Below, piece after piece: positions 19,188 to 48,212 of a stretch of DNA of 64,000 nt (position 1 is the stretch's first letter; every line of letters begins with the position of its first letter). The position numbers and the translations under genes are program-made. The stretch is taken from assembly GCA_965198125.1 (NCBI GenBank), contig CBDAOQ010000003.1, positions 2,447,953 to 2,511,952 on the forward strand, given 5' to 3'. A model generated the notes under the pieces. The model did not search any database and was not told where the DNA came from. It was given only the letters and a program-made list of their open reading frames with translations. This DNA comes from Candidatus Versatilivorator sp. GTDB taxonomy: Bacteria; Acidobacteriota; Terriglobia; Versatilivoradales; Versatilivoraceae.

Positions 19188-19234
19188 GGGCGGGCAGACA
19201 AGCCACTGGTGTCTGTCCGCCCGCGATTTTACAT
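19188..19234 (+). terminator. Candidate rho-independent terminator after vapC
   Basis: Stem GGGCGGGCAGACA / TGTCTGTCCGCCC (13 bp) with a 9-nt loop, followed by GATTTTACATT. Confidence 0.4.
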
Positions 19235-19236
19235 TA

Positions 19237-19309
19237 GAGCCTTTTGCAAAATTCCGCAGATAGGGGAGGTGGAGAGTCCGGCGCTGCACGACGAATTTTG
19301 CAAAAGGCT
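19237..19309. mobile_element. Miniature (about 73 bp) derivative of the IS4/IS5-like IS found at 43325 and 51111: both terminal inverted repeats with only about 37 bp between them
   Basis: GAGCCTTTTGCAAAATTCCGCAG ... CGAATTTTGCAAAAGGCT matches the IR pair of the two full IS copies (GAGCCTTTTGCAAAATTCGCAG / CGAATTTTGCAAAAGGCTC). Confidence 0.5.
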
Positions 19310-19407
19310 AAATAGAGAGCTTCTTACCTCAGGGGGTGCGCTCCGTCCGAAAGGCAGCCGCCAACCGGTGGCTTCGGTCGGTCATACACGACCCGCATTG
19401 GAGAACC

Positions 19408-24699: not shown

Positions 24700-24728
24700 T
24701 CAGTTGATACCTGATTGCTAGGAGAGTA

Positions 24729-24844
24729 GGGGACGTTGTTGAATTACTGGAATAACTACGATCAGCCGCTCCTGAATTGCTTTTATTCAATCACGTCACC
24801 TACGCGCTCTTTACAAGTTATTCCAGTAATTCAACAACGTCCCC
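24729..24844. mobile_element. 116-bp MITE with perfect 29-bp terminal inverted repeats GGGGACGTTGTTGAATTACTGGAATAACT
   Basis: TIR at 24729-24757 and its exact reverse complement at 24816-24844. Same termini as the 212-bp element at 47905-48116 and the element hosting an IS at 43309-45008. Confidence 0.7.
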
Positions 24845-24964
24845 AGCTCAAACTTTCAATCAGTGATTGAAATTGAAGGCATCCGCTGCTTGCATCGGTG
24901 ACAGCGTTGATCGTGATTCGGTTGACACTCTTGCCTTTGTAGCTATATTATTGTAGTTACAACG

Positions 24965-27640: not shown

Positions 27641-28524
27641 GAGTAGATTTCCTCCGGCACCGGCTCGAACAGCTCCGCCGACCGGATGCCCGGCAGGTGG
27701 GCCAGGGAGCGAAACTCGGAGCTCACGGCCACGTAGTCCTCCGTTTCGGCAACCACGGCCGGCTTGCAGGCAAAAGCGTCCCGGACCAGGACCAGCTTCT
27801 CGGCCGTGGCCATCAGGAGGGTGTAGAACCCGTCCAGCTCCACGAAGGCTGCGCCCAGGGCCTCCTCCAGGGTCTGTCCCTCTCTCATGCGCCACTCCAG
27901 AAAGCGGCAGGCGGCTTCGGTGTCGTTGTCGGTCTCGAACACGATGCCCCGTTTTTCCAGCCGCCGTTTCAGGCTCCAGGGATTGGAGAGGGACCCGTTG
28001 TGCACCAGGCAGAAGTCTTCGCCGGCGGTAAAGGGATGGGCGTGGGCGGGGGAGACCGCCGATTCGGTCGCCATCCTGGTGTGGCCGACGCAGTGGCTGG
28101 CCGCCAACCCGCCAAACCCGTAGCGCCGGGCGATCTCGGCGGGATGGCCCATATCCTTGTAGACCTCGATGGACCGGCCCGTCGAAAGCAGGTGCACGGC
28201 GGGGAACTCCCGGGACAGCCACTCCTCCAGGCTCTCGGGTGCGATCGAGGAAACCAGCCGTCCATGATTTTCGATCCAGCTCAGATTGCCCTCGCAAGCG
28301 GTGTCCCGCTCAAAGGCCTTCCCCATCTCCGGCCAGTCGAACCCGGGCTGGCCGCAGAACAGGCTGTAACGCCGCTGCCTGCCGTCCCCGAGGGGAGAGA
28401 AGACCGCCAGGCCTGCCGAGTCGGATCCCCGGTCCCCCATGCAAGTGACCATGGGGGTGACCCACTCCCCCAACTGGGCCCGCTTCGACTCAGGCTTGAT
28501 CAGCAAGCCGATGATTCCGCACAT
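27628..28524 (-). CDS. mgsA: Class-II glutamine amidotransferase subunit (GltB domain 1-like); N-methylglutamate synthase subunit A-like
   Basis: Starts MCGIIGLL (N-terminal nucleophile Cys) with GGAGGA upstream; HTRMATES, HNGSLSN motifs of class-II GATase. Confidence 0.75.
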   Translation of the reverse strand: MCGIIGLLIKPESKRAQLGEWVTPMVTCMGDRGSDSAGLAVFSPLGDGRQRRYSLFCGQPGFDWPEMGKAFERDTACEGNLSWIENHGRLVSSIAPESLEEWLSREFPAVHLLSTGRSIEVYKDMGHPAEIARRYGFGGLAASHCVGHTRMATESAVSPAHAHPFTAGEDFCLVHNGSLSNPWSLKRRLEKRGIVFETDNDTEAACRFLEWRMREGQTLEEALGAAFVELDGFYTLLMATAEKLVLVRDAFACKPAVVAETEDYVAVSSEFRSLAHLPGIRSAELFEPVPEEIYSWSL

Positions 28525-28594
28525 GCGGATCCTCCGGAAATCCGGCGGCCAGGGCGGCGAGGTTTCCGACACCCCTGGCCGGGCCGCGTCGGTG

Positions 28595-29928
28595 TCAATA
28601 AAACTCCAGATACCGCTGGACTTCCCAATCGGAGACGTGCCGCTGGTACTCGGTCCACTCCATCTCCTTGAGTTCGATGAACTCCCGCAGGAATGCTTCT
28701 CCCAGTTGCTCCGCAAACAGGGAGTCTTCCTGGAGGGCTCTCAAGGCTTCGATCAGGGTCTGGGGGAGTACTCCGATGTTCATCTCCCGCAGGGCTTCCG
28801 GGGTGTAACGGTAGTGGTTGATGTTGTGTGGCGGTCCGGGGTCCAGCTTGCGCTCGATGCCGTCCAGGCCGGCCGCGATCACGGCCGCCGTGGCCAGATA
28901 GGGGTTGCAACTGGAGTCGCACAGCCTCAACTCGAGCCGCCCGTAGGGGACCCGCACCATTGAGGTCCGGTTGTTGTCCCCATAGGAGATATAGGCCGGG
29001 GCCCAGGTGGCACCGGACAGCGAGCGGCCCACCACCAGCCGTTTGTAGGAGTTGACCGAGGGGGCCGCCAGGGCGGTCAGGGCCGGAGCGTGGGCCAGCA
29101 GCCCTCCCAGGAAGTGGTAGGCCAGTTCCGACAGCCCCAGTCGGTTCTTGTCGGAATCGTCCTGGAAGAGGTCATTGCCCTCGCGGTCCCAGATCGACAT
29201 GTGGATATGGCTGCCGGTCCCGGTGCGGTTGGACATGGGTTTGGGCATGAAGGAGCAGATCACCCCGAATTCACGGGCGATCTCTCCGGCGGCCATGCGG
29301 AACAGCACGTAGCGGTCCGCCGAGGTGATAGCCGGTGAGAAGGTGAAGTTGATCTCGAACTGCCCGTTGGCGTCCTCATGGTCTATCTGGTAGACGTCGA
29401 ATCCGATGGACTGCAGCGAACCCACCAGCTTTTCCAGGAAGGCCCGGCTGCGTGAGAGTCCCTTGTAGTCGTAACAGGGTTTCTCCAGGGTGTCGGTGTC
29501 GTCGGCGGGCCGGATGGAACCGTCCGGATTGCGGCTCAGCAGCATGAACTCGGGTTCCAGGCCGGTGTTCAGGATCCAGCCCCTTTGTTCCAGGCGCTTC
29601 ACCTGCTGCTGGAGAATGTGGCGGTGTCGAAAGGGTAGGGCTCTCCGTTCACCCGGCCGTTGCAGACGATACGGGCATATCCTGGCTGCCAGGGGACCAG
29701 CGTCAGGGTGTCCAGATCCCCCACGGCCATGAAGTCGGGATCATGTGGCTCTTGGCCCAGGCCCCACACGGCGAACCCGGCAAATCCGGCGCCGTCGGTC
29801 AGGATATCCTCAAAGTGGCTGACCGGGACCGACTTGGTCTTGGCCACGCCGTGGACGTCGACAAACTGGGCCAGCACGAACTTGACATCGTTTTCCTTCA
29901 AGAAGGTCTGGGCTTGGTTGAGGTTCAT
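28595..29928 (-). CDS. gmaS: Glutamine-synthetase-family enzyme (gamma-glutamylmethylamide synthetase-like) with an apparent -1 frameshift near 29615-29625
   Basis: N-terminal beta-grasp part ([27 protein letters not shown]...) ends ...[14 protein letters not shown]. The +2 frame reads ...[29 protein letters not shown]... into the catalytic domain ([12 protein letters not shown]). Continuity would need one extra C in the run gacacc(c)gccac. Confidence 0.65.
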
Positions 29929-29933
29929 GGACA

Positions 29934-30647
29934 CTATCCTTTCAGTGAACTCGCCGGAGAGAGACCGGGATAGAGGCAGCCCAGCCCCACCGCATCGCCG
30001 CCGTCTTCCCGGACGATGCCCAGCAGCGTTTCCCAAAGATACACACTATAGCTCGGGTCCAGCCAAATCCGAAGCGCGGCGATGCCGGACGCCTCCACCC
30101 GCAGCAGCCGGCAGGAGACTCCCGCCACCCGGCTCAGAACCACCTGTCCCGCCGATTCCCGAAAATGGTGGCCGCAGGTCTGGCTGAGAACCTCCCCGGT
30201 CCGAGGTCCGATCAGCAGAAACGAGGCCTCCTGCCGCTCCACCCGGTAGACCCCCGGGGGGTTGGCCGAGAGCCGGTCCTGGATGCGGGAGACCACTTGT
30301 CCTCGAAGCCCGTCTTCGAGGAACACTTCTTCCCGGTCGATACGGACCAGTATCCCATGGCCTTCAATGGGCCTGACCGCGTAAAGGGCCTCAGCCGTTT
30401 GCAGGCCGTTCTCCCGGAGCCAGGGCAGCACGCCCGCTCCCTTCAGGCCCAGGCGGGGCAGGCAGCTCAGGTCGGCCAGGGCGAGGTGTCCCTTGAGCCG
30501 GTCTTCCTGCTCCGGGCCGGCGAATCGGAGGACCGCGGCCATGCCCCGCACCTCGGTCCAGACGGGATGCATCGGTTCCATCAGGTCATGGACCGGACTT
30601 TGCCTCTGGAGGCTTGGGATCGAAGGATTCATGAGGCGAGCCCGCAT
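29934..30647 (-). CDS. mgdD: Sarcosine oxidase gamma-subunit family protein (N-methylglutamate dehydrogenase subunit D-like)
   Basis: 237 aa; [16 protein letters not shown] pattern of the SoxG family; directly follows the SoxA-like gene. Confidence 0.65.
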
Positions 30648-30884
30648 TTCTCACCGGGTCGCTGGTAGCATGGTGAAAAGCAGTTTATTTTCAGTACCTT
30701 GATTGGTGTCATTTAAAGGCCTCGTGGGTACAGACCGTGCTGGGCGCGCTCTGGCTTGTCCTTTTCCCCTCAGCACGCACATGCTCGCTCGACCGTAGTG
30801 ACCGCTACGCTCTTCGCTCGCGAGCACGCGCTGAGGGGAAAATTCCTACGCCATGATCACGCCCCCCGGTGAGAAATGCGGGCT
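30639..30884. repeat. About 245-bp nested palindromic element inside the mgdC-mgdD junction; outer 20-bp perfect inverted repeat AGCCCGCATTTCTCACCGGG
   Basis: Arm 30639-30658 contains the mgdD start codon; arm 30865-30884 (reverse complement) encodes the last codons of mgdC. Inner inverted repeat TTTTCCCCTCAGC(G/A)CG... at 30762-30841. A second copy of the inner about 170 bp lies at 38785-38950. Confidence 0.55.
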
Positions 30885-33793
30885 GGCGCCTGCTTCTGCC
30901 GCAGGTTCCCGGGATCGTAAAAGGGCAATTCCACCACCCGGGCCGCGAACAGCCAGCGGCCGCCGATTCGGATGCGGACGGCGGTGCCGGGTGCGGACAG
31001 TTCCGGGTGAACGTAGGCCAGGCCGATGACCTGCTTCAGGGTGGGGCTGAAAGCGGCGCTGGTGACCCGGCCGGCAATCTCTCCTCCATGGATCACCAGC
31101 TCGCATTCCCCGGGCACGGGCCCGCCATAGGCCTCCGGGAAAGCGAACCCCACCAAACGGCGTTTGAGGGGCCTGGCCCCCAGAATCGACAGGCTGCGCT
31201 GACCCAGAAAGAAGGGTTTGTCGGCCTTCACCGCCCACTCCAGTCCCGCCTCCCCGGGATAAGAAAGACCGTCGGAGTCCTGACCCATGATCAGGTGCCC
31301 CTTTTCCAGACGCAGCAGGCGTTGGGCCTCCACGCCGAAGGGACGAATGCCGCCGGCCCGCCCGGCCTCCAGCAGCCGGTCCCAGACCCCCACGGCGGCA
31401 TCGGCGGGAACGTGGATCTCGTAACCCCACTCGCCCACGAATCCGACTCGGAGGACGCGGGCCCGAGCGCCAGCCACCCGTCCCTGGCGAACTCCCAGGT
31501 AGGGGAAGGCCTCCGGATCCAGGTCGATGTCGGTCAGCGATTGCAAGATCTGCAGGGACCGGGGGCCGGCCAGATTCATGGCCCCGTACATGCCCGTCAG
31601 GTTGAGAACCATCACCTGCAGCGACCAGATCAGGGCCCAGCGGGTCATCTCCCGGGCCACGGCGTCGGAAGCCCCGCTGGTGGTGGTCACGTAGAAGCGG
31701 TCGGAGGCCAGGCGGGCCGCCACACCGTCATCCACCATCATTCCGCTCTCGTCGCACATCAGGACGTAGCGGCTTCTCCCTTCCCTCAACCTGGCAAACC
31801 GCCCCGTGTACATCCTTTCCATGAAGGCCACCGCGTCCCGGCCGCAGATTTCCAGCTTGCCCAGGGTGCCCACGTCGACCACGCCCACCCGGCGGCGAAC
31901 GGCCTCGGCTTCCGCCTGGATGGCTGCCCGCCGGCTGGCTCCCGGGACCGGGTAGTATTCCGGCCGCAGCCAGCTTCCCGCAACCATGAAACGCGCGCCC
32001 AGTTGCCGGTGGCGGGCGTGCAGGGGGGTTCGGCGCTGGGGGCTGAAGATGCGCCCGGCCAGATGACTCAAGGGCACCGGGCTGGTGAAGGGACGGGCCG
32101 TGGTCAGTCCGGTCGCCGCCAGCGATTTTCCTTTGAGCCGGGCCAGGATTCGAGCGCCATTGAGGTTGGAATGCTTGCCCTGGCTGGGTCCCATGCCCAG
32201 GGTCGAGTAGCGTTTCAGCAGCTCGGCGCTGTCGAATCCCTCCTGGACGCTGTTCCGGATGTCGTCCAGTTGAATGTCCTCGTCGAGGTCCACGAAATTC
32301 TTGCCCCGAGGGTGGGGGAAGACCGGGTAAGGGTGGCTGAAGGCAGGCCCCCGCCGTTGGGACGCTGCCGGTGTTTCGGGAGGGGCTTTTCCAAGGTGCG
32401 CCGCCGCCTGCCTGCCGGCGCGGCGACCGTCCTCGAGCTGGTCCCCCAGGGCATAGATACCGTTGACCCGTCCGGCGGCAAAGACTCCCGGCGGCAGCCG
32501 GTCCGGGACATACTGTTCCAGAGATTCCGCGTACCGCATGCAGGCTCCCGCCTGGCGGAGGATGCTGTCCGCGGGAGTCCATCCCACGCTCATGGCGATG
32601 CCGTCACAGGAGATGGGCTCGGACTGATCCGGCAGGGGATCTCCGCGTCCGTTCTGAGGGCAGAGCAGCGCCCCTCGGATGGCTCGCTTGCCGGGCGCCG
32701 GCAGGGCTTCATAGATGGCAGTGCCCGGACGTATGGGAATCCGGCGCCCCGCCACTTCCTCTTTCCAGGTTGACGTCTCCCCTTGCGGCCGCAGGTCGGA
32801 GACCAGCGCCACCTTCACCCCCGCCCGGTGGAGGTCGACTGCCGCCCGGTATCCGTCGGTGTTGGCCGTCACCACCACCGCTTGCCGGAAGGGCTTGACG
32901 GCATACTGGTGGATCAACCGCTGCGCCGCCGAGGCCAGCATGACTCCGGGGAGGTCGTTGTTGCGAAACACGGCCGGCTGGTCGTAACAGCCGGCGGCCA
33001 CCACCAGGCTGCGGGCCCGCAGCTTGGTCAGCCGCCGGGAATCGATCAGGGCCAGCCAGTGGTCCGCGTAGCAGCCGGCCGCCGTGGTTCCGGTGCGCAG
33101 TTCCAGGTTGGGCAGGGCGGCGGCCTTGCCCAGAAGCTGGTCCAACAGGGCCCTGGCTTCCGGCTCGCCCGGCAACTGGAACCCCAGGGTCCCGCCCGGC
33201 AGGCGATCCTCTTCCACCAGCAAGACCTTCAAACCCAGCTCGGCGGCGGCGACGGCCGCCGAGAGGCCGGCGGGGCCGGAGCCCACCACCAGCAGATCGC
33301 AGAAGTCATAGCGCTTGGGGGTCGGCTGCAGCGGCTCGTCCGGATGGACGTTGCCCAGCCCGGCGATCCGGCGCATGCAGCGCTCATAAAACGGAAACAG
33401 GGCGCGGGGACGATGGAAGGCCTTGTAGTAAAAGCCTACGGGAAGGAAGGCTGAGAAAAGCTCGGTGAAACGATAGAGGTCCGACTGCACGCCTCCCCAG
33501 GTGTTGACCGCTTTGACCTCCAGTCCCGGCTCGATAGGGGTGGTATCCATCCTGAGGTTGGTCGAGTCCCGATTTTCGGCCAGGGCATTGCAGTCCAGAC
33601 CGCACAGGCTGAAGATGCCGCGGGGACGATGGTACTTGAAGCTGCGTCCCAGCACCCGGATGCCCGAGGCCCACAGGGCCGTGCTGAGGGTGTCCCCCCG
33701 ATACCCTTGGTACTTTCGGCCTTCGAAGACGAAGCCAACCGGCTGCTCCCGATCGATCCGTTCTCCGGGCTGGGGGCCAAGGCGTTCACTCAT
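30857..33793 (-). CDS. mgdC: Sarcosine oxidase alpha-subunit family protein (N-methylglutamate dehydrogenase subunit C-like): 2Fe-2S-like N-domain, FAD/NAD domain, C-terminal GcvT-like folate-binding domain
   Basis: Start MSERLGPQPGERIDREQPVGFVFEGRKYQGYRGDTLSTALWASGIRVLGRSFKYHRPRG (SoxA N-terminus); LVVGSGPAG dinucleotide motif; C-terminal aminomethyltransferase-like region. Confidence 0.8.
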   Translation of the reverse strand: MSERLGPQPGERIDREQPVGFVFEGRKYQGYRGDTLSTALWASGIRVLGRSFKYHRPRGIFSLCGLDCNALAENRDSTNLRMDTTPIEPGLEVKAVNTWGGVQSDLYRFTELFSAFLPVGFYYKAFHRPRALFPFYERCMRRIAGLGNVHPDEPLQPTPKRYDFCDLLVVGSGPAGLSAAVAAAELGLKVLLVEEDRLPGGTLGFQLPGEPEARALLDQLLGKAAALPNLELRTGTTAAGCYADHWLALIDSRRLTKLRARSLVVAAGCYDQPAVFRNNDLPGVMLASAAQRLIHQYAVKPFRQAVVVTANTDGYRAAVDLHRAGVKVALVSDLRPQGETSTWKEEVAGRRIPIRPGTAIYEALPAPGKRAIRGALLCPQNGRGDPLPDQSEPISCDGIAMSVGWTPADSILRQAGACMRYAESLEQYVPDRLPPGVFAAGRVNGIYALGDQLEDGRRAGRQAAAHLGKAPPETPAASQRRGPAFSHPYPVFPHPRGKNFVDLDEDIQLDDIRNSVQEGFDSAELLKRYSTLGMGPSQGKHSNLNGARILARLKGKSLAATGLTTARPFTSPVPLSHLAGRIFSPQRRTPLHARHRQLGARFMVAGSWLRPEYYPVPGASRRAAIQAEAEAVRRRVGVVDVGTLGKLEICGRDAVAFMERMYTGRFARLREGRSRYVLMCDESGMMVDDGVAARLASDRFYVTTTSGASDAVAREMTRWALIWSLQVMVLNLTGMYGAMNLAGPRSLQILQSLTDIDLDPEAFPYLGVRQGRVAGARARVLRVGFVGEWGYEIHVPADAAVGVWDRLLEAGRAGGIRPFGVEAQRLLRLEKGHLIMGQDSDGLSYPGEAGLEWAVKADKPFFLGQRSLSILGARPLKRRLVGFAFPEAYGGPVPGECELVIHGGEIAGRVTSAAFSPTLKQVIGLAYVHPELSAPGTAVRIRIGGRWLFAARVVELPFYDPGNLRQKQAPARISHRGA

Positions 33794-34052
33794 GGTCGTG
33801 GTCTTCCCCATACAGATAGGTCCGCAGGATCTCGTCGGTAGAGGTGTTCCGTTCGGCGATGAACCAGACGCCGCTGGCCAGGTGGCACCACCACTCCTTT
33901 TTGACCGCGGCGGCCCCGGAGCGATGAAAGACATAGTCGGCCCACTGCCGGTCGGAACACTCTCCGGGTGGGGGCATCGGCCGGAAAGTGCCGCCGTAGG
34001 AAAATTCCTGGATGGGCCGCCAGCCGTTGACGGGACAACGCATCAGCTTCAT
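33786..34052 (-). CDS. mgdB: Sarcosine oxidase delta-subunit family protein (N-methylglutamate dehydrogenase subunit B-like)
   Basis: MKLMRCPVNGWRPIQEFSYGG... SoxD-type small subunit; GGAGGA 9 nt upstream; 8-nt overlap with the mgdC start. Confidence 0.65.
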   Translation of the reverse strand: MKLMRCPVNGWRPIQEFSYGGTFRPMPPPGECSDRQWADYVFHRSGAAAVKKEWWCHLASGVWFIAERNTSTDEILRTYLYGEDHDHE

Positions 34053-34083
34053 CTGCCGCAATCCTCCGGTCCCGGCGATCCTT

Positions 34084-35325
34084 TCAGTGTCCGACCGAGG
34101 CGGCTCCCTTTTCACCCACCAGTTCGAACTCCTCGAATCGGGAGAGGCGAAAGGGGACGATCAGGGGATGGGGCCGGTCGGTGGCCAGGGTGTGGGCCAT
34201 GGTCTTGCCGCACACCGGGGTCGCCTTGAATCCCCAGGTACCCCAGCCGGCATCCAGGTAGAATCCTTCCACCGGCGTTTTCCCCATGATGGGAGAAAAA
34301 TCGGGCGTCATGTCGGCCAGGCCGGCCCACTGGCGCAGCACCCGCACCTGGCCCAGGAAGGGAAACAGCTCCAGCATGTGTCCGGCCAGGCCCTCCACGA
34401 AATCCAGGGTCGAGCGGGTGGAGTGCAACTCGTAGGGGTCCAGCGCTGCCCCCATGACCAGCTCGCCTCGCGAGGACTGGCTGACGTAGAGATGCAGGTT
34501 GGCCGAAACGATGATGGTGTCCAGCCAGGGCTTCAGGGGCTCGGTGACGCAGGCCTGCAGGGGATGCACCTCCAGGGGCGTCCGAATGCCCACCATCCGC
34601 ATTACCGCCGGCGTGTATCCGGCCACCGCCGACAGGACCTTGCCGGTCCGGACAAAGCCCCGGTTGGTTTCCACCCCCGCCACCCGGCCACCCTGGACAC
34701 GGATCCCGGTGACCTCGGTCTGCTGGTGGATCTCGACGCCGCGCTGGCTGGCGGCGCGGCCATACCCCCAGGCCACCGCGTCGTGACGGGCGATGGCTCC
34801 GGGAGGGTGGTAGAGGGCCCCCAGCACCGGGGTGTGCCCCCCGCAGCTCAGGTCCAGGTGAGGGCATTCCCGGCGGATCACCTCCGGGCCCACCAGCTCG
34901 CTGTCCACCCCCAGGTGCTTGTTGACCTCGGCCCGCCAGCGCATGGTCCGCAGGGTGGCGTCGCTGTGGGCCAGGGTGAAATGCCCCCGGCGGGAGTAGA
35001 ACAGGTTCAGGTCCAGGTCGGCCGACAGGTCCTGAAACAGGCGCAGGCTCTCATCGTAAAAGCGGACGCCCTCGGCCGTCAGGTAGTTGGAACGAATGAT
35101 GGCGGTGTTGCGTCCGGTCCCGCCGGCGCCCAGGTAGCTCCTCTCCAGGACGGCCACCTCCCGGATCCCATGGTCGCGGGCGAGATAGTAGGCGGCCGCC
35201 AGGCCATGGCCTCCGGCCCCGATAATGACGGCGTCGTAGTGGGGCTTCAGCCGGTCGGGGCAACGGAACATGCGGGGTTCCGGATAGCGCCGGCTCATTC
35301 CGAATCGTAGCAATCGAAAAGGCAT
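34084..35325 (-). CDS. mgdA: Sarcosine oxidase beta-subunit family FAD oxidoreductase (N-methylglutamate dehydrogenase subunit A-like)
   Basis: YDAVIIGAGGHGLAAAYYLA FAD-binding motif, DAAO-type fold; start MPFRLLRF at 35325 (the track ORF starts 16 codons earlier). Confidence 0.8.
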   Translation of the reverse strand: MPFRLLRFGMSRRYPEPRMFRCPDRLKPHYDAVIIGAGGHGLAAAYYLARDHGIREVAVLERSYLGAGGTGRNTAIIRSNYLTAEGVRFYDESLRLFQDLSADLDLNLFYSRRGHFTLAHSDATLRTMRWRAEVNKHLGVDSELVGPEVIRRECPHLDLSCGGHTPVLGALYHPPGAIARHDAVAWGYGRAASQRGVEIHQQTEVTGIRVQGGRVAGVETNRGFVRTGKVLSAVAGYTPAVMRMVGIRTPLEVHPLQACVTEPLKPWLDTIIVSANLHLYVSQSSRGELVMGAALDPYELHSTRSTLDFVEGLAGHMLELFPFLGQVRVLRQWAGLADMTPDFSPIMGKTPVEGFYLDAGWGTWGFKATPVCGKTMAHTLATDRPHPLIVPFRLSRFEEFELVGEKGAASVGH

Positions 35326-36004
35326 GAAGGTTTCCGGGGTGCGATCCTTCGGGACGGGGGCACCACTAACCACTAGCCACTATTCACTTTTCACCTAGCC
35401 GCGCTGCCTTGCCATGCGATGGGGCTGATCATACAGGGAGAAACAGGGGTGTTTCAGGTAAGCCGGGCCCCCGCCCCCACGACGGTGCGCATCACTCAGA
35501 GGAAAAACAGCCGTTCGTCAATGAAGACGAACCACCAATGAACACGAATAGGCACCAGGACTGATGGACCTCCTTCAACGACAACTGGCGCCAAAATGCT
35601 TCTGCACTTTTGTCCCGTTGGTGTGACCCTGTCATGGGAGGAAGCCCCCCCGGGAGCGCGGGCGTCCCGCCCGCACAAATCCTCCCGCAGCTTCGGCCAT
35701 CTCCTCCACCGGAATCAACCGGCAGCGGCGCCCTGCCTCTGCTTCGGCCGGGCCCATGCGGTTCCCGCCGGCAGGGCGGTCGGCTGCAACATCGCAGGGA
35801 AACTGAGCGGCAACCGAAGGGACAGCATGCGGGCGGGACGCCCGCGCTCCCGGGGGTGTCGTCCCGATGGTGAGGTGGGGGGTATCCGGCGGGCGACTTC
35901 TCTGAAAGCCGGCCTGTCCCCTTTGGGAGACTCCCGTTTGCCTGCGAGCCGGGCGCCCGCCCCCCGCGACTGGGCAGATCCATCGAGAAGGACTATAAAT
36001 TGAA

Positions 36005-36164
36005 CATCGATGCACAGGATGCACAGGATGCACAGGATAATCAGGACGGGAGGCTGCTGCAGGAGACGCTGACTCAAGCAATGATCGCGTGCGGATTTGA
36101 GGATGTCCGGGAATACAAGCCAGCCGTCTCCGGAAAAAATCCTGTGCATCCTGTGCATCGATGT
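36005..36164. repeat. Long inverted repeat with GCACAGGAT tandem copies: 25-bp perfect arms separated by about 100 bp
   Basis: ACATCGATGCACAGGATGCACAGGATGCACAGGAT (36005-36038) vs ATCCTGTGCATCCTGTGCATCGATGT (36139-36164), about 680 bp upstream of mgdA. Confidence 0.5.
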
Positions 36165-36249
36165 GAATCAAAAATCTACCCATGCCTGACTATGAACCGG
36201 TTTCCAGCCAGGCCAGGCGGTTGCAGGCAAGTGGGGCCCCTTGTTTCAG

Positions 36250-36590
36250 TTGTTTCAGACAAGTCCGGCCCCCGCCCTGCCGTGCGGATCATACGAGAGT
36301 GAAACAATCGGAAATCGACAATCCTTTCGTGACCTTGGCATCCCGTCGCGGCTAACCTCAACGCCTTAGTGGCCCTTTGTCGTTCTTAGTGGCCCTTCGT
36401 GGATAGCTCTTTTTTCTTTTGTTTCAGGTAAGTCGGGCCCCCGCCCTGCTGGGCGGATCATACGAGAGTGAAACAATCGGAAATCGACAATCCTGTCGTG
36501 ACCTTGGTATCCCGTAGCGGTTAAACTCAACGCCTTAGTGGCCCTTTGTCGTTCTTAGTGGCCCTTCGTGGATAACTCTTTTTTCTTTTG
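36250..36590. repeat. Tandem direct repeat, 2 x about 170 bp, immediately 3' of the sulfite-oxidase-like gene
   Basis: Unit TGTTTCAG(A/G)(C/T)AAGTC(C/G)GGCCCCCGCCCTGC..GGCGGATCATACGAGAGTGAAACAATCGG...CCTTAGTGGCCCTTTGTCGTTCTTAGTGGCCCTTCGTGGATA(G/A)CTCTTTTTTCTTT. A partial extra 5' copy at 35452-35480 and partial 3' copy at 36590-36604. Confidence 0.6.
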
Positions 36591-36607
36591 TTTCAGGTAA
36601 GCTCAAC

Positions 36608-37771
36608 TCAGGAAATCATCACGGTCCGGACAAACTGGGCGTTGTTCTCCCAGCGGGTCTTCTTCAGCTCCAGATCCCCGGCTTCGGGCTGAACCCCGCC
36701 GTAGGCATCGATGGCCCTCGACACGATGGTGTGGGTTCCCGGAGTGATATCGTCCCAAGTGCAGGTAAAGAGCTTCCAGGAATGGGCCGTGGAACGCCGG
36801 TCGATGGCGGCCGGTCTCCAGGGGCCCCCGTCGATCTTGACCTCAACGGCCTTCAGGGGCGTGCCGTCGTTCAGCACGAACCCCAGGATCCTGCAGCGGG
36901 AGCCGTTGCGGGTGACCCGGGCGACCATGGACTTCAGGCGAATGCGGCTGACCGAGGTTTCGTTCCAGACGACGCCCTCCCCGGCGGGCACTCCTCGCAG
37001 GGTGACATACTCGCGGGCCATGTACTTTCCCATGAAGCGGCGGTCCTGCACGTGGATGTGGGTCAGCCACTTGACGTTGGCCACTCCGTACCAGCCGGGC
37101 ACGATCAGGCGGGCCGGCGCCCCCTGCTCCGGGGAGAGCGGCTCCCCGTTCATCTGGTAAGCCACCAGCACTTCCGATTTCATGGCGTCCGCCAAGGCCA
37201 GGCTCCTTCCGAAGGGCTGCTCCACGGTGGTCGTGTTCCCGCCGTGAGAGACTTCCTCGGTTCCCTTGTCCGCCCCCCAGAACACGACCTCGCGGGCGTA
37301 GGACTTGATCCCCGCCTCCTTGAGGAGGCTGCTCAGGCTGACCCCGGCCCAGCGGGCGTTGCCGACCAGCGGGTTGATTCTGCGGTTGCTGTTCCCGGAG
37401 CACTCGAACCCCGCCGTGTGGGTGGATCGCGGCCGCCGCCTCAACTCCTCCAGGGTCAGCTCCCGGGGGAAATCCACCAGTCCGCTGATATGGAGACGGT
37501 AGCTGGCCGGGTCCATTGCCGGGCGCCCGTAATGCTGGACGGTGAAGAACTGGTCGCTGGGTGTCAGGAAGCTTTGGATCTTGCGAGTGTCCAGGTAGCG
37601 GATTCCGGGCCGGGGATTGGGATTGAAATCGGCCGGGAAATCGGTGAAGGGGACCAGTGTTTCGTCCTCCTCCAAGGGAGGCAGCCCGAGTGCGGGAATT
37701 GCCGAGGCGGCCCATCCGGCCAGGGCGGCGCTCCCTTGCAACAAGTGTCTGCGGCTGATGCCTTTTCTCAT
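36608..37771 (-). CDS. Sulfite oxidase-family molybdopterin oxidoreductase with Tat signal peptide
   Basis: SRRHLLQGSAALAGWAASA twin-arginine signal; Mo-co binding region (HTAGFECSGNSN, LVAYQMNGEPL, RLIVPGWYGVANVKWLTHIHV) and C-terminal dimerization domain. Confidence 0.8.
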   Translation of the reverse strand: MRKGISRRHLLQGSAALAGWAASAIPALGLPPLEEDETLVPFTDFPADFNPNPRPGIRYLDTRKIQSFLTPSDQFFTVQHYGRPAMDPASYRLHISGLVDFPRELTLEELRRRPRSTHTAGFECSGNSNRRINPLVGNARWAGVSLSSLLKEAGIKSYAREVVFWGADKGTEEVSHGGNTTTVEQPFGRSLALADAMKSEVLVAYQMNGEPLSPEQGAPARLIVPGWYGVANVKWLTHIHVQDRRFMGKYMAREYVTLRGVPAGEGVVWNETSVSRIRLKSMVARVTRNGSRCRILGFVLNDGTPLKAVEVKIDGGPWRPAAIDRRSTAHSWKLFTCTWDDITPGTHTIVSRAIDAYGGVQPEAGDLELKKTRWENNAQFVRTVMIS

Positions 37772-37834
37772 TTCATACCTCCATGTTGGCGGGGGATACC
37801 GGCCTCCGGGTGCTGCCCGAGACCGCGGGTGGTC

Positions 37835-38746
37835 TCAGGGGCGTCTCAGTCTTTCGGCGTGGACTCGAGCCACGTCTCCCATGTAGTGGTTGACGGGATA
37901 GCGGTCGGCGGCCAGAACCAGGTTTCGGCGGGCCTCAGTCTCGTCTCCCATGGCCTCATGGTACAACCCCAGGTAGAGGTGGGCGTAAAAGAGCTGCCGC
38001 TGCTTCAGGGCAGCATCGCCCTCCCCGGCGCGGGCTGCCCGCATGACTTCCTCGATCGTTCCCTCTCCCTTGAACAGTCGATAGATCTCCATCATGGGCA
38101 CCCGCGGGTCCCCTTGGATGTTCAGGAGGGACTGGCGGGCCTGGTTCACCCCGTCCAGGCGGGCGCCGCAGAGAAAGTGCCACACGGCGTTCTCCACGTC
38201 GTTGGCGTTGACCCGCTGATGGGACTGGAACTGGTCGCGGCCCTTGCGGTAGAGGCCGGCGTAGTAGTAGGAGATGCCACGCTGCCAATGGTAGGGCTCC
38301 TGCTTGGGATCCAGTTCGATGGCCCGGTCGAAATCGGCGATGGAGGCCTCGATGTGGCCCAGCTTGAAATGCTCGCTGCCCCGACGGTTGTAGACCTCCA
38401 CCAGCTTGGGATCGAGCTTCACCACGGCGTCGTAGTCGGCAATGGCATGGCGGTGACTCCCCAGCATCTCGTGGAGCCAGCCGCGGGCCAGGAACCCCTG
38501 CGGATCCCGTGGGTTTCGCTGGATGGCCCGGCTCGCCAGCGTGAGGGCGCGGGTGAAGTCCCCGCGTTGATAGGCGGTCCGGGCCTGGGACAGCAGTTGG
38601 GCCAGGGTGGGCTCCTCCGCCCGCAGGCCGCCTGCCGCCCCCCCGAGCGCCAGGATCAGCCCCAGGGTCCCGGAAAAACGCCGGCACCCGCGCCTCCATT
38701 GGAAACAGAGGACATCCCGCCGTGGAACCGGCAACCCGCGTTTCAT
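37835..38746 (-). CDS. Secreted TPR-repeat protein
   Basis: Signal-like N-terminus (FSGTLGLILALGGAAGGLRAEEP) then TPR-like helices (TAYQRGDFTRALTLASRAIQRNPRDPQGFLARGWLHEMLG...). Confidence 0.65.
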   Translation of the reverse strand: MKRGLPVPRRDVLCFQWRRGCRRFSGTLGLILALGGAAGGLRAEEPTLAQLLSQARTAYQRGDFTRALTLASRAIQRNPRDPQGFLARGWLHEMLGSHRHAIADYDAVVKLDPKLVEVYNRRGSEHFKLGHIEASIADFDRAIELDPKQEPYHWQRGISYYYAGLYRKGRDQFQSHQRVNANDVENAVWHFLCGARLDGVNQARQSLLNIQGDPRVPMMEIYRLFKGEGTIEEVMRAARAGEGDAALKQRQLFYAHLYLGLYHEAMGDETEARRNLVLAADRYPVNHYMGDVARVHAERLRRP

Positions 38747-38784
38747 ACCATCCCTCCCTGGGGCTGAAGCCCACGCTAGTTTAA

Positions 38785-38950
38785 CCCGCATTTCTCACCG
38801 GGGGGGCGTGAAAATGGCGCAGGATATTTTCCTTCAGCGCGTGCTCGCGACCGAAAAGCGTAGCGGGCACTACGTGCGAGGGAGCATGGGCGCGCTGAAG
38901 GGAAAAAGACAAGCCAGGGTGCGCCCGGCGCAGTCCGTACTCCGAAGCCT
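38785..38950. repeat. Second copy (about 170 bp) of the palindromic element found inside the mgdC-mgdD junction, here intergenic
   Basis: CCCGCATTTCTCACCGGGGGGGCGTGAAAATGGCGCAGGATATTTTCCTTCAGCGCGTGCTCGCGA...GCGCTGAAGGGAAAAAGACAAGCCAGGGTGCGCCC aligns with the reverse complement of 30720-30884. Stem positions differ by paired changes (CCCCTCAGC/GCTGAGGGG vs CCTTCAGC/GCTGAAGGG). Confidence 0.5.
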
Positions 38951-39078
38951 CAAGAATCGGGCCAGTAGGCTATGAAATCCGAGGAATCCGCGCTATCGGT
39001 GGGGCTTGACAGTGCCCCCGCAGTTAAGGCAACGTTTTCCGGTCTGAAAGGGTCTGGGGTCGACAGCCGGACCCGATC

Positions 39079-39873
39079 ATGGATCAACCCAAAGGAGTTC
39101 TCATGAAACGCCTATCCATCTTGCTTCCTGCCCTGGCGATCGGACTTTGTCTGGTCTTCATTCTACTGTCACGGCTCGGTCCCGCTTCGGGAGCGGCCCC
39201 GCAGCCGCAGTCCGAAGGCCTTACCCAGGCTCAGATCATCGAGGCCCTCAAGAAGGCCAGCACCGGCAACCTGGCGGATGCCATCGAGACCGCTACCGGA
39301 AGGGCCGGATTCATGAGCCACGACATGAAGCCCATCTTCCGGGCCAAGGTGGTGGGTCCGGCGGCGACGGCGCTGTTGAGGCCGATCTTGACCACCGACA
39401 AACGCAAGTATCCCAACTACCACCTCCAGGTGCTGGACGAGGCCCCGGCGGGGAGCGTTCTGGTCTATGTCCTGGAAAACGGCCTGCACGTTTCCGGCAT
39501 CGGCAACCTCATGGCCACCACCGCCACGGTCCGGGGTCTGGCGGGGGCGGTGATTGACGGAGCCGCCAGGGACATCGAGGAAATCGAGCGGATCGGCTTT
39601 CCGGTCTACAGCCGAGCCGTCAGCCCGGCCACGGTGGTCGGGCGCTACGTGAGCGTTTCCATGCAGGAACCCGTGATCTGCGCCGGTGTCCCGGTGCGGC
39701 CGGGCGACTACATCGTGGGGGACAGCGATGGCGTGGTGGTGGTTCCCGCCGACCGGGCCGAAGATGTGCTGGCCCTGATCCGGGAGTACGATGAGAAAGA
39801 GAGCGCCATGATCCCCTTGATCAAGGAGACCAAGTCCATGCTCAAGGCCCTGGCCAAGTACGGCCGGTACTGA
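39079..39873 (+). CDS. RraA-family (RraA/MenG/4-hydroxy-4-methyl-2-oxoglutarate aldolase fold) protein with an N-terminal signal/anchor sequence
   Basis: MKRLSILLPALAIGLCLVFILLS hydrophobic N-terminus, then RraA-like core (LADAIE...GFMSHDMKPIF...VVGPAATALLRP...GSVLVY..ENGLH.SGIG.LMAT.A..RGLAGAVIDGAARDIEEI...GFPVYSR). Confidence 0.6.
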   Translation: MDQPKGVLMKRLSILLPALAIGLCLVFILLSRLGPASGAAPQPQSEGLTQAQIIEALKKASTGNLADAIETATGRAGFMSHDMKPIFRAKVVGPAATALLRPILTTDKRKYPNYHLQVLDEAPAGSVLVYVLENGLHVSGIGNLMATTATVRGLAGAVIDGAARDIEEIERIGFPVYSRAVSPATVVGRYVSVSMQEPVICAGVPVRPGDYIVGDSDGVVVVPADRAEDVLALIREYDEKESAMIPLIKETKSMLKALAKYGRY

Positions 39874-39886
39874 GGTCGTTGGCGTT

Positions 39887-41164
39887 CTAATGCTTCGGTT
39901 CCGGCAGCCGCCAGCGGACGATCTCCAAGTGAGTCTTCTCGTCCGGGGTGCGGTAGGAGTAGCTGGTGACCAGCGTTCCATCCTCCAGTTGCACCGTAGG
40001 CCCGAACCCGCCACCGCTGAGCATCCCAATGGGGTTCTTGGAGTCCAGAATGATACGGTCATCGCGGAAGTCCAATTGGAAGCCCTCCGGAACTTCCCGG
40101 CCCAGCACCGCCCGAACGCCCGGGGGCGGGGTGTTCGGAGGCACGGCTGCCCTCAGGGTAAAGGTGAACAGCAGGCGGCCATCCCGCAAGCGCATCAGGG
40201 CGGGGTACATCTCTCCGTAGTAGCTGCCGAACTCCTCCAGCGACCAATGGTGCCCGCCGTCTCGAGAGCGGTAGAGGACCATCCTCTCGTAATGGTCGAT
40301 CTTCTCGGCGGGAATTTCCGTTCCCGGCAGGGGCGGAAAGTACTTGGGAGTGATCCGGCAGACGGCCAGCAGGTCGCCGGCGGGCGCCTGCCAGAGAAAG
40401 GCCTCTCCCAGGATGGGGAAGGGCAGGGTGCTTTGCTCCACACCCCCAAAGCGGCAAGCCAGGGACTTGTCCCAGGTCTCGCCGCCGTCGTTTGATCTCC
40501 AGAGGAATTCGTGGCCGCCCTTGCCGGCGACAGCGAAGACCAGCGCTCCACCCTCCAGTTCCAGAACATTGCGGCCGGTTACCACCGTATCCGGGCCCTC
40601 CATCCCCTTCAGGGCCTGGAAGCCGATTCGCTGCCCCTCCCAATGGTCTCCCCCGTCGGTGGACCGGTAGAGAAAGCTTTGGGTGTAGCCTTCCCGGTTT
40701 CCCCTGGCCCTGGGGAGGAGATGGGTGCTGACGAAAATGGTGCCGTCGGAGGTGACCGACAAATAGGGTTCCCGGCCCAGCACATCCAGTTTCCGGCGCC
40801 GGGACCAGGTTCGACCTCCGTCTCCGGAGCGGTAGAGGAAGGCGTACTCTTCGGGAACTCCCCCCTGCCGGGGTGCGTGGAACGCCACCAGCAGCAGCTC
40901 CCCGCCGGGCAGCCGGGCGATGCAGGGCTTGTAGTCCTCCGGGATGCCGATGGGAATCCGCTCCCCAACCAGTTGGGTCTTCCCGATGGTTCTGGGATTA
41001 GTCACCCGGACCGGGTCGTCAGGCTGGAGAGCCCCGGAAGCACAGCCTCCCGCGGCCAGGCCGGATGCCGCAACAGCCGACAGGACCAGGGACCGGAATG
41101 GAGAGTGGGCCGGCCGGCAGGAGCCCGGACAGCCCGCGGGCAGGCGGGAAGGAGTGGTTGACAT
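39887..41164 (-). CDS. BNR/Asp-box repeat (sialidase-like) lipoprotein
   Basis: Lipobox-like LAAGGC after a signal peptide; four SxDxGxTW-type boxes (SGDGGRTW, STDGGDHW, SNDGGETW, SRDGGHHW). Start MSTTPSRL chosen (the track ORF extends 105 codons further through GC-rich sequence). Confidence 0.7.
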   Translation of the reverse strand: MSTTPSRLPAGCPGSCRPAHSPFRSLVLSAVAASGLAAGGCASGALQPDDPVRVTNPRTIGKTQLVGERIPIGIPEDYKPCIARLPGGELLLVAFHAPRQGGVPEEYAFLYRSGDGGRTWSRRRKLDVLGREPYLSVTSDGTIFVSTHLLPRARGNREGYTQSFLYRSTDGGDHWEGQRIGFQALKGMEGPDTVVTGRNVLELEGGALVFAVAGKGGHEFLWRSNDGGETWDKSLACRFGGVEQSTLPFPILGEAFLWQAPAGDLLAVCRITPKYFPPLPGTEIPAEKIDHYERMVLYRSRDGGHHWSLEEFGSYYGEMYPALMRLRDGRLLFTFTLRAAVPPNTPPPGVRAVLGREVPEGFQLDFRDDRIILDSKNPIGMLSGGGFGPTVQLEDGTLVTSYSYRTPDEKTHLEIVRWRLPEPKH

Positions 41165-43308: not shown

Positions 43309-43324
43309 GGGGACGTTGTTGAAT

Positions 43325-44808
43325 GAGCCTTTTGCAAAATTCGCAGTGGAGCATGACATTTTGCTGGCTAACGTGATGTTCCGCTTGTGATTACCCGACA
43401 GCAAGGACACTTTCAAGCGGAAATGCCCGGATCTGAGGGCCGGATCGCAGGCGGTCGCCGTGCGCGGGCACAGCTTGCCCTCTCCCTGCCCTACGGCGGG
43501 CAAACCTGCTGTCCTGTTCGGGGTGGCGGCCAAGTCTTCAGAGCGTCAGGCGCATCAACTGTTCCACCGTCAGCGCGAGGATGCCGAACATCAGGTGGCA
43601 CCACACCTTGCCCGGGCCGCGAACCCTCAGGTACCGCCCGCCAAACTCGTCCTTGAGCCGTCCGTTCACCCGCTCCACAGTCGAGCGCTCCCGGTAGCGC
43701 CTCACCTCGGGAGGCACTTGGCCGATGCGGCGCTGAGCCAGCGCCTCCCGCTTCCGCTCGGCTTTCAACTGCGGCCGCCTGCGGGGATTGAGGTCGATGA
43801 TCGGCACATGGCCCAGCTGCTCACTGAAGGCCCGGATCTCAGGCGCGTCATAGGCGCTGTCCATCAGGTCGTAGAGGCTGTCGACCCGACTCGCGGTCAG
43901 CCTCGCCAGCGGGATCGCCGCCTGACTGTCATGCACCGAGGCTGACGTCAGCAGGCAACTGACCGGAATGCCGCCGTCGATGGCGTCGATGTGCAGCTTG
44001 TAGCCGGTCCAACTCTCCTGATGCCCTTTGGCGTTGCGCTTGACGCCGATGTCGCAGACCTTCGGCAGGTCCTCCAGCATCTCCTCCAGCGTCATCGACG
44101 CCTGCCGCTGCAGGCGGCGCGGCTCCTTCGCCCGTAGCTCGTCCTTGCGCGGCCGACCCCGTCGGCGCTTCGGCCTGGCCGTCGCTGCGGGCTTGGGCGC
44201 CGGCGATTCTCGTCCCGGGATGGCGGTCGAGTCCCTCGAGACGTGGCCCGCCAAGTGGCCCTTCAGCGTTCTGTCGAGCAGCGCCTCATGCAGGCGCCCC
44301 GGCAGGTCGCTGGCGGCGAATTCCGCAAACGCGCGAGAGAAGGTTGCCTCGCTCGGCACCCCACCCGCCGCCTCCCAGCCGCACAGGCGGCGCAGGGTAG
44401 GTTCCGTCCTCAGCCGCTCCACCAGCCCCCGGGTGGTGGGCACGTCCAGCACCGCCTTCGCCAGAAAGGCCCGCGCCAGCGCGGCACGATCCTTCAGCGG
44501 CCGGCCCCGCCAGCCCCTGTTGTAGGGCAGCCACTCCTCCACTCGCACCAGTTCCAGCACCCGGACGAGCCGCTCGTAGCGCTCGCCCAGGGGACCCAGG
44601 GTCTCCTCCAGCCACGGAAACAGCTCCCGTTGAAACCTGAACCAGTGTCGTGATAGGGTTTGTTTAAGGGACAAGTTCCACCTCCGTTCATCATGTCGAT
44701 TGCTCATCTCCATGATACAATAGAGATCGGACTTGTCCCGCGACTGACCTGTCCCCTTACCTTTCCTGGTAAAAAATCCCGCTACCTGACGAATTTTGCA
44801 AAAGGCTC
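43325..44808. mobile_element. IS element, copy 1 (about 1.48 kb), IS4/IS5-superfamily DDE transposase, 19-bp IRs GAGCCTTTTGCAAAATTCG
   Basis: Perfect terminal IRs; single transposase ORF; second copy at 51111-52550; miniature derivative at 19237-19309. Confidence 0.65.
43538..44713 (-). CDS. DDE transposase (DDE_Tnp_1-like, IS4/IS5 superfamily), copy 1
   Basis: 391 aa from MEMSNRHDERRWNL...; C-terminal RYRERSTVERVNGRLKDEFGGRYLRVRGPGKVWCHLMFGILALTVEQLMRL typical of IS4/IS5-type transposases. The track ORF is longer only because the stop-free frame reads through the MITE. Confidence 0.75.
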   Translation of the reverse strand: MEMSNRHDERRWNLSLKQTLSRHWFRFQRELFPWLEETLGPLGERYERLVRVLELVRVEEWLPYNRGWRGRPLKDRAALARAFLAKAVLDVPTTRGLVERLRTEPTLRRLCGWEAAGGVPSEATFSRAFAEFAASDLPGRLHEALLDRTLKGHLAGHVSRDSTAIPGRESPAPKPAATARPKRRRGRPRKDELRAKEPRRLQRQASMTLEEMLEDLPKVCDIGVKRNAKGHQESWTGYKLHIDAIDGGIPVSCLLTSASVHDSQAAIPLARLTASRVDSLYDLMDSAYDAPEIRAFSEQLGHVPIIDLNPRRRPQLKAERKREALAQRRIGQVPPEVRRYRERSTVERVNGRLKDEFGGRYLRVRGPGKVWCHLMFGILALTVEQLMRLTL

Positions 44809-47885: not shown

Positions 47886-47904
47886 ACCCACCAGAGGGAA
47901 AACA

Positions 47905-48116: not shown

Positions 48117-48212
48117 TTACTTTACGCGTTTATCACCTACGGGGTGATCAATGACGGCGGCCGACCCGGCCAGCGCAGTGGGGACGGCGCTTTCCTGCTG
48201 AGCCAGGAGTAG
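48117..48212 (+). pseudogene. Orphan 3' fragment of a paralog of the giant protein's C-terminal domain
   Basis: ...LLYAFITYGVINDGGRPGQRSGDGAFLLSQE* vs the giant protein C-terminus ...NPFLAYGVVNDGGAPGERSGDGAYLPARE*; begins at the MITE boundary. Confidence 0.5.

Follow-up and report, generated by a model that had tools for sequence, protein, structure and literature searches.

A probable miniature transposable element with IS1380-type ends between mgdC and mgdD of a methylamine-utilisation operon in Candidatus Versatilivorator

We analysed a 64,000-nucleotide stretch of DNA from Candidatus Versatilivorator sp. (the window; contig CBDAOQ010000003.1, positions 2,447,953 to 2,511,952), in which a palindromic element at 30639-30884 separates two minus-strand genes, a soxA-like gene (mgdC) and the soxG-like gene that follows it (mgdD). 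We are highly confident that this palindrome is a non-autonomous MITE (miniature inverted-repeat transposable element) of 242 bp with ends of the IS1380 type, which inserted into the last codons of mgdC. The insertion event itself is ordinary and cleanly documented. The MITE split a gene pair whose stop and start codons had overlapped, yet the methylamine-utilisation operon has remained intact through about 7% nucleotide divergence. An earlier note on this DNA had offered two views of the palindrome, one as a translational-coupling device and one as a mobile palindromic unit inserted into the operon, and the latter is borne out by the terminal inverted repeats, the 4-bp duplications found across the family, the large number of copies and the empty orthologous sites.

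The 20-bp perfect inverted repeat that had drawn attention to the region is present and lies far above chance expectation. The sequence AGCCCGCATTTCTCACCGGG occurs without mismatch at 30639-30658 on the plus strand and at 30865-30884 on the minus strand, and a third time, with 1 mismatch, at 38783-38802; 0.01 matches were expected by chance, and three were reached in 0 of 100 shuffles. A repeat search lengthened the arms to 23 nt (96% complementary), separated by 206 nt, and an inner inverted repeat of 16 nt was detected at 30762-30777 / 30827-30842. We folded the minus-strand RNA of 30620-30900, as the earlier note had suggested, and obtained the stable long-range pairing that it envisaged: the predicted energy was -139.9 kcal/mol, compared with -97.5 +/- 5.6 kcal/mol for shuffled sequences (z = -7.6), and the two arms formed the outer stem, nearly perfect over about 25 bp, in both the minimum-free-energy and the centroid structures. 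The plus strand of the same interval folds about equally well, which a palindrome in DNA would lead one to expect.

With the boundaries placed according to the family pattern YTAR|CCCGC...GCGGG|YTAR (described below), the MITE copy between the two genes (copy 1) occupies 30641-30882 on the minus strand, and its perfect terminal inverted repeats, oriented as on the operon mRNA, are CCCGCATTTCTCACCGGG and the reverse complement of that sequence. Arm A (30865-30884, minus strand), which is 5' on the mRNA, consists of the terminal inverted repeat plus 2 nt of flank, and its translation gives the soxA-like protein its new C-terminal residues (...P-A-R-I-S-H-R...); the 3' arm (arm B, 30639-30658, minus strand) contains an in-frame ATG at 30647-30645 that is not the conserved start of mgdD. 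The target-site duplication on the mgdC side lies at 30883-30886 (CTGG on the plus strand, CCAG on the mRNA) and has decayed from the family's usual CTAG; the copy on the mgdD side, at 30637-30640 (CGAG on the plus strand, CTCG on the mRNA), matches it at 2 of 4 positions. Between the termini lies a conserved structured core (30740-30855, minus strand), a long imperfect hairpin whose main stem is the inner inverted repeat and whose tip reads GCGTAGCGGTCACTACG; it scores 135.8 bits with the covariance model of the family. The reading frames that cross the element are the ends of host genes only, so copy 1 carries no transposase gene, and a potential internal ATG GCG runs straight into a TAG.

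Comparison of orthologous junctions allowed the empty site to be recognised. Close relatives were found through the gamma-subunit protein, and we examined the DNA surrounding twelve of them. In L113, L114, L116, L118 and L124 the soxA-like stop codon and the soxG-like start codon share an ATGA, and in L117 a GTGA, all without the element; L115 has the same uninterrupted junction sequence, with its soxA-like gene called shorter. Thus the six orthologous junctions without either arm have retained the normal overlap of stop and start by 4 nt. In L111, L122 and L123 the junction is a different one and holds unrelated spacers, 124 to ~415 nt long. In addition to the window, one site is filled: L112, whose gamma subunit is 91% identical, carries the same insertion at the same place, on a contig that starts inside the element. 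The insertion therefore predates the split between the two.

The uninterrupted junction reads CAGAAGCAGGCGCCTGTGTCATGACACC in L114 and GCGCCTGCATCATGAAACC in L124. Removing 30637-30882 from the window, that is, the element and one 4-bp flank (246 bp, 82 codons), yields ...GCGCCAGCCTCATGAATCC and ...CAGAAGCAGGCGCCAGCCTCATGAATCC, which restores the junction length of L124 and L114 and again makes the TGA overlap the ATG at 30632. The soxA-like protein reconstructed in this way ends in ...QKQAPAS*, identical to that of L124, whereas at present it ends in ...QKQAPARISHRGA*. The insertion point thus lies within the last soxA-like codons, 8 nt upstream of the ancestral ATGA overlap; the insertion put 224 nt between the mgdC stop and the mgdD start, and the soxA-like protein now takes its last 8-9 residues, and its stop codon, from the element. 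We rejected a model of a 246-bp element with a GGCG duplication, which would leave a junction 4 nt shorter than that of every orthologue and shift the mgdC frame. The boundaries of 242 + 4 bp are preferred because they restore both junction length and frame. A metagenome scan for the filled-site junction returned no match.

As an observation in its own right, the junction between the soxA-like and soxG-like genes is a recurrent landing place for other sequences (L111:3877-4000, L122:1029-1440 and L123:997-1410). The spacers of L122 and L123 hold other repeat families that also occur in the window, namely a repeat whose ends read ACATGGATGSACAGGAT (compare window 36004-36164) and another containing the motif AAAAGAGTTATCCACGAAG (compare window 24085, 36383 and 36552).

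The termini of the element are shared by a large family. When the 18-mer CCCGCATTTCTCACCGGG was scanned against one genome per species, it was found at more than 110 loci (a lower bound) in many metagenome-assembled genomes (MAGs) of several phyla; by our calculation, about 17 chance matches to a single 18-mer are expected in that collection. Allowing up to 3 mismatches, we collected 73 inverted pairs of the terminus, which span 117-568 bp if a few pairings of more than 1 kb that join separate elements are left aside. The flanks of these pairs are overwhelmingly of the form CTAG|CCCGC...GCGGG|CTAG, or TTAA on both sides, and CCAG and CTGG variants of CTAG recur at other copies. Identical flanks that are not palindromic (CTAA/CTAA in L013 and L077, TTAG/TTAG in L103) show that 4 bp of target, YTAR, are duplicated. 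The termini of the family can be written CCCGCATTTCTCACC, with YTAR duplications. Hosts include Acidobacteriota MAGs with complete chromosomes (Ca. Versatilivorator, Versatilivoraceae) and long contigs of Gammaproteobacteria and Alphaproteobacteria; less secure as hosts are the MAGs labelled Nitrospira, Deltaproteobacteria, Thermoanaerobaculales, Actinomycetota and Planctomycetota. Several of the 18-mer matches lie about 30-40 nt from contig ends, as expected because repeats break assemblies. The Ca. Versatilivorator chromosome OZ253547.1 accounts for about 30 loci among the matches listed, contains full-length copies 86-89% identical to that of the window and also shares other repeats with the window, which itself holds two copies of the element. 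A search of 28000-41000 on both strands against Rfam 15 at E <= 1 matched no family, and a full-text literature search for the terminus sequence found no paper. Being small, non-coding, bounded by terminal inverted repeats and present in dispersed copies, the element is a MITE, and it belongs to a widespread family that is apparently undescribed in the literature searched.

Further leads on the family were discarded. A role of the terminus as a portable start codon was dismissed, since outward-facing ATGs within it are not enriched in frame with long downstream open reading frames (ORFs): 32 ends are in frame 0 and 42 in frame 1. Matches on two viral contigs (L120:4317-4334 and L121:7239-7256) are a coincidence within an HNH-like phage gene, in which the 18-mer encodes ...PGEKCGLS..., and a plasmid collection queried with both the whole element and the terminus gave chance matches only, among them H1, which was read and dismissed.

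Individual copies illustrate how the family varies. The copy at L011:4936-5098, of 163 bp, has lost the inner hairpin by a precise deletion (ATGGCGCAGGAA|AAGGACAAGCCAG) and kept both termini, which shows how shorter subfamilies originate, and the copy at L088:7605-7887 carries an internal triplication of a piece of about 19 nt from the 3' arm of the hairpin (GAGGGAGCATGTGCGCGCT). At L015:6053-6056 a 374-amino-acid ORF ends in the TAA of the duplication, at the very edge of the element. The YTAR target contains TAA or TAG, and a preference for targets that resemble stop codons in G+C-rich genomes could explain why copies are found at gene ends.

To place the element among known transposons, we read the ends of annotated IS1380-family elements from plasmids. 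ISEcp1 (L125) has the left end CCTAGATTC... and, read inward, the right end CCTAAATTCC...; the IS1247-like element (L126) has CCCACATTTCCCAAGT at its left end and, read inward, CCTGCATTCCCCAAGT at its right end; and an IS1380-family element of Microvirga (L128) has the left end CCCGCATTCGCCGGATGA, its right end being left out of the comparison. Both ends of the MITE, as an inverted repeat, are the 18-mer given above. Aligned from the outermost base, CCCGCATTTCTCA of the MITE compares with CCCACATTTCCCA of the IS1247-like element, CCCGCATTC of the Microvirga element and CCTAGATTC of ISEcp1. Of the first 13 nucleotides of the MITE end, 11 agree with the left end of the IS1247-like element, a match with odds of about 1e-5 at an anchored position by our calculation; with the Microvirga element 8 of 9 agree. 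The IS1380-family members read here have termini that begin 5'-CC and follow CCYRNATTYC, and the ends of ISEcp1 and IS1247 on the one hand and of the MITE on the other all begin CC(C/T)(A/G)NATT(T/C)C; the ends of the MITE are therefore of the IS1380 type. Because it encodes nothing, in particular no transposase such as those of ISEcp1 and IS1247, the element is not itself a member of the family, and it is most likely a derivative or hitch-hiker of IS1380, as judged from these ends.

Members of the IS1380 family have ends beginning with CC and duplications of 4-5 bp (ISfinder), and IS1380 is a prokaryotic relative of piggyBac, which targets TTAA. The 4-bp duplication of the MITE, centred on TA (CTAG or TTAA), fits both of these properties; in two of the annotated IS1380 elements the target duplications could not be made out. 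IS1380 transposases have served as the outgroup for piggyBac (PMC10813416). The termini would have been recognised by an IS1380-like, piggyBac-related DDE transposase that mobilised the element in trans, and the family could help in a search for active piggyBac-like transposition in environmental bacteria.

The search for an autonomous partner covered the ORFs inward of 55 unpaired termini, the long-range terminus pairs (L015, L035 and L040), an all-against-all clustering of the 1348 locus ORFs, and Pfam and NCBIfam scans of 21 candidate ORFs. The transposases that lie near some copies are of other families, and two of them came under consideration. The IS1634-like transposase of L089 was rejected because it is fused to half a MITE and has no terminus at its right end, and the ISL3 element of L025 is nested and not bounded by MITE termini. 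IS701 was set aside as a parent since its published end consensus, ---YACT-Y--YR (PMC2266710), does not fit the MITE ends, and a metagenome scan for the Planctomycetota variant gave no match. Independently of the partner search, in the fusion in L089 (L089:3431-5030) the left end of a MITE, made up of the terminus and about 90 nt more, directly adjoins an IS1634-family transposase gene from which the first ~50 codons are missing.

Several observations weigh against reading the palindrome as an IS1380-type MITE. Some of the matches in other phyla lie in MAGs in which they may represent binning errors, and single, unpaired 18-mer matches may be due to chance. The two duplication copies at the present site, CCAG and CTCG on the mRNA, agree at 2/4 positions, so that this copy taken alone offers no clean duplication. 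The searches of the 110 loci, the plasmid collection and the literature and two metagenome scans yielded no autonomous element that has these termini, so it is the similarity of the ends that carries the assignment of the transposase. Finally, L112 and the window are 96.1% identical (123/128) in the element part, while for the two flanking genes the third codon positions give 90.3% and 84.5%; this is compatible with some local constraint on the inserted copy. Another intergenic stretch likewise reaches 94.3% identity.

The interior of the element is conserved as a structure across the family. In an alignment of thirteen full-length copies the left two-thirds are conserved and the right third is variable, the conserved part comprising the terminus, the motif ATGGCGCAGG, the long hairpin with a GCGTAG-loop-CTACG tip, and GGACAAGCCAGGGCGCGCCC. 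RNAalifold identified seven pairs that changed on both sides, and a covariance model of the 116-nt core also matched the gamma- and alphaproteobacterial subfamilies at 25-34 bits. With an alignment fitted to the covariance model itself, 28 of 37 pairs change on both sides and 91% of cells are paired, compared with 35-49% when the partners are slid, and 0 of 500 shuffles reached the observed values. Changes from G-C to A-T at position 16 of the terminus (CACCGGG to CACCAGG) recur in the opposite end; the two ends covary, as they should if a single transposase binds both. The earlier note had taken paired changes between the two copies in the window as an argument for selection on structure. Such selection is borne out by covariation across the element family in several phyla, and it is a property of that family, not of this operon. 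The conserved, covarying hairpin would be something that the element itself needs, at the DNA or RNA level, and not the host operon.

These features invite the alternative that the region is a host-encoded cis-regulatory RNA, such as a riboswitch, an attenuator or a small RNA, that is palindromic by accident. The strong fold and the covariation of the inner hairpin would suit it. We nevertheless regard it as extremely improbable, given that the search at E <= 1 matched no Rfam family, that the same module occurs in unrelated contexts of many genomes and is in every case bounded by the same termini and target duplications, that it is absent from orthologous operons, and that no sense-strand terminator was predicted. 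A bolder proposal builds on the MITE: the family might be an undescribed superfamily with identical 18-bp termini across Acidobacteriota, Alpha- and Gammaproteobacteria and probably other phyla, whose compensated hairpin is a functional module, either a cis-element for a transposase of the IS1380/piggyBac kind or an RNA that has a function by itself, and whose terminal stem may here have been recruited so that the insertion is looped out on the mRNA and translation of mgdD still requires that of mgdC. The GCGTAG-loop-CTACG tip, kept by compensatory changes across subfamilies, does suggest a functional structured module, but taken as a whole we give this proposal little credence.

We then considered what the insertion may do to the operon mRNA. 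No sigma-70-like promoter or sense-strand terminator was predicted in the element, and read-through transcription is therefore expected. On the mRNA the predicted stem reaches to 1-2 nt before the AUG at 30632. The computed cost of opening positions -18 to +12 around this AUG is 28 kcal/mol in free mRNA and 16 kcal/mol with a ribosome footprint on the soxA-like stop; the latter cost remains since, once the ribosome has moved on, pairing can be restored in the outer half of the stem. Little independent initiation is therefore to be expected at mgdD, and in these models the terminal stem would sequester the mgdD ribosome-binding site. Translation of mgdD would then probably depend on ribosomes finishing mgdC and opening the stem, on cleavage of the RNase III type, or on both. 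Any such dependence of mgdD on mgdC would be an accidental consequence that makes the insertion tolerable, not a selected device, and on the computed energies ribosome-dependent unmasking of the mgdD start as a by-product is plausible.

The proposal that the palindrome evolved as a translational-coupling device does not survive the comparison of relatives, which gave the refuting outcome that the earlier note itself had named: orthologous junctions that lack the arms keep the normal overlap, and long-range pairing of the arms is not conserved among the orthologous operons, six of whose junctions have no arms and three unrelated spacers. It could be argued that the stem was exapted after insertion and is now under selection, with mgdD translated only when ribosomes completing mgdC melt it and 1:1 coupling thereby restored. 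The geometry would permit this, since ribosomes translate the 5' arm, the mgdC stop follows 5 nt after it and the stem ends just short of the ATG at 30632; the computed drop in the opening cost with a ribosome on the mgdC stop points the same way, as do the retention of the insertion since before the ~7% divergence and the conservation of the element part above that of third codon positions. Against these points, orthologues without the element use the ATGA overlap, and the unrelated spacers of 124 to ~415 nt in three relatives imply that tight coupling is dispensable there. Perfect arms are the rule across the family, so no local selection is needed to account for them here, and the ATG within the arm is not enriched in frame with downstream genes at other copies. 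The half of the stem next to the mgdD start can re-form, and the residual 16 kcal/mol, as computed, would still be prohibitive. We therefore think exaptation improbable. Cleavage of the terminal stem by RNase III, which would split the transcript into mgdABC and mgdD-gmaS-mgs messages and make the mgdD start accessible, seems somewhat less remote, though still doubtful, and it is compatible with an inserted MITE. By analogy, the nearly perfect outer stem would make a suitable substrate, read-through into it is expected with no sense-strand terminator predicted, and Correia elements are bound and cleaved by RNase III with effects on neighbouring genes (PMC2649163, PMC10969869); cleavage and simple structural occlusion fit the observations equally well.

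Understood as a MITE, the element can be set beside several known systems. In the RNA phage MS2, translation of the coat and replicase genes is coupled by long-range mRNA pairing. The present case is similar in that a segment within the upstream frame pairs, in silico, with the downstream initiation region, so that upstream translation can unmask the start. The two differ in origin, as pairing of the MS2 type is conserved and genetically shown, whereas here it comes from the inverted ends of a recent insertion that is absent in orthologues. Correia (CREE) elements of Neisseria have TA as their target duplication. They are bound and cleaved by RNase III, and both they and the ERIC elements of enterobacteria are described as co-transcribed palindromic MITEs whose terminal stems on mRNA affect neighbouring genes in their expression or stability (PMC2649163, PMC10969869). 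The present element differs from them in sequence and in host. Rickettsia palindromic elements are likewise palindromic and mobile and form in-frame coding insertions that add residues to host proteins (PMC10969869); those are internal insertions that encode a conserved peptide, whereas here only a terminus is translated and the rest is intergenic.

An example of a bacterial MITE with a copy within an operon is Chunjie of Geobacter uraniireducens (Chen et al. 2008, as summarised in PMC3184786 and PMC10969869). Chunjie shares with the present element a small size (178-235 bp), the lack of coding capacity, terminal inverted repeats of about 20 bp, target duplications and very stable RNA folds, and both exist in many copies of varying length, with a copy inside an operon that leaves the genes intact. 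Chunjie is A+T-rich, has 9-bp duplications and is reported from one species, whereas the present element is G+C-rich, has 4-bp YTAR duplications and other termini, and occurs in several phyla. No sequence relationship between the two was seen.

On the minus strand, the genes of the operon are arranged in the order soxB-like (35373-34084), soxD-like (34115-33786), soxA-like (33934-30857) and soxG-like (from 30647 or 30632 to 29934), after which come a gene of the glutamine-synthetase-like type and one for a GXGXG protein. In relatives, GATase, GXGXG and Glu_synthase genes extend the cluster. This layout (soxBDAG-like, glutamine-synthetase-like, GATase, GXGXG and Glu_synthase genes) is that of the N-methylglutamate pathway. 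The operon is thus an N-methylglutamate pathway cluster for methylamine utilisation, and the names mgdC and mgdD used in the earlier note are reasonable in view of the layout. The soxA-like ORF, given here as the longest frame (30857-33934, minus strand), has the Pfam domains Fer2_4, SO_alpha_A3, GCV_T and GCV_T_C, and its true start probably lies further downstream, near the soxD-like stop. The soxG-like gene (29934-30632, minus strand) encodes 232 amino acids from the conserved ATG, has the Pfam domain GCV_T and has homologues named sarcosine oxidase gamma subunit.

The ends of both genes at the junction had been placed inside the arms of the palindrome, which needs revision. The present stop codon of the soxA-like gene, a TGA at 30857-30859 on the minus strand, is supplied by the element and lies 5 nt inside it, the arm itself being made up of the preceding codons. 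For the soxG-like gene, the ATG at 30647-30645 within the arm is merely the first ATG of the open frame. The start at 30630-30632 (minus strand) is favoured by the N-termini of the orthologues, by the orthologous junctions and by the reconstruction of the empty site: all full-length soxG-like orthologues begin at its equivalent (M-x-P/T-x-x-P...L-x-R-R/Q-SPV), and a gene caller picked the equivalent ATG in L112, the relative with the same insertion. This ATG sits in TCATGA, the former stop/start overlap, 7 nt outside arm B. Three calls are accordingly to be corrected, namely the 3' end of mgdC, of which the last nine codons and the stop are transposon sequence, the start of mgdD, and the region annotated as intergenic.

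The second copy in the window, which the earlier note had placed at 38785-38950, is real and 84% identical. It extends over about 239 bp on the plus strand (38785-39023) upstream of a TPR gene, is inverted relative to copy 1 and is flanked by TTAA at 38781-38784 and 39024-39027. Its left terminus and core are intact and its right terminus has decayed; the covariance model matches it at 38813-38928 with 120.8 bits. At least one compensatory change of the kind reported for the inner stem was confirmed (CCCCTCAG/CTGAGGGG versus TCCTTCAG/CTGAAGGG). The ORF finder starts the adjacent TPR gene at an ATG within the terminus, at 38791 (window 38744-38791); a better start lies in frame 45 nt downstream, ATGAAACGC at 38746, with GGGAGGG before it.

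Other repeats are plentiful in the window. Just upstream of the soxB-like gene, 35400-36600 is a nest of repeats that includes a 29-nt perfect inverted repeat (35647-35675 / 35828-35856), a 26-nt one (36004-36029 / 36139-36164) and a 169-bp tandem duplication (36240-36577), and 35550-36481 is 90% identical to L041 of Ca. Versatilivorator. Two repeats of about 1.5 kb at 43324-44808 and 51110-52550, which are 94-96% identical, have the inverted ends GAGCCTTTTGCAAAATTC and are accompanied by related end fragments at 19233-19312, are probably an insertion sequence of another family. A further inverted-repeat family, AGGGGACGTTGTTGAATTACTGGAATAAC, occurs at 24724-24849, 44980-45009 and 47904-48117 as pairs 58-156 nt apart and, at 44980-45009, as a single arm. 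Long tandem arrays of units of about 300 nt, with periods of 306, 342 and 675 nt, occupy 3000-14200 and look like the repeats of a very large repetitive protein.

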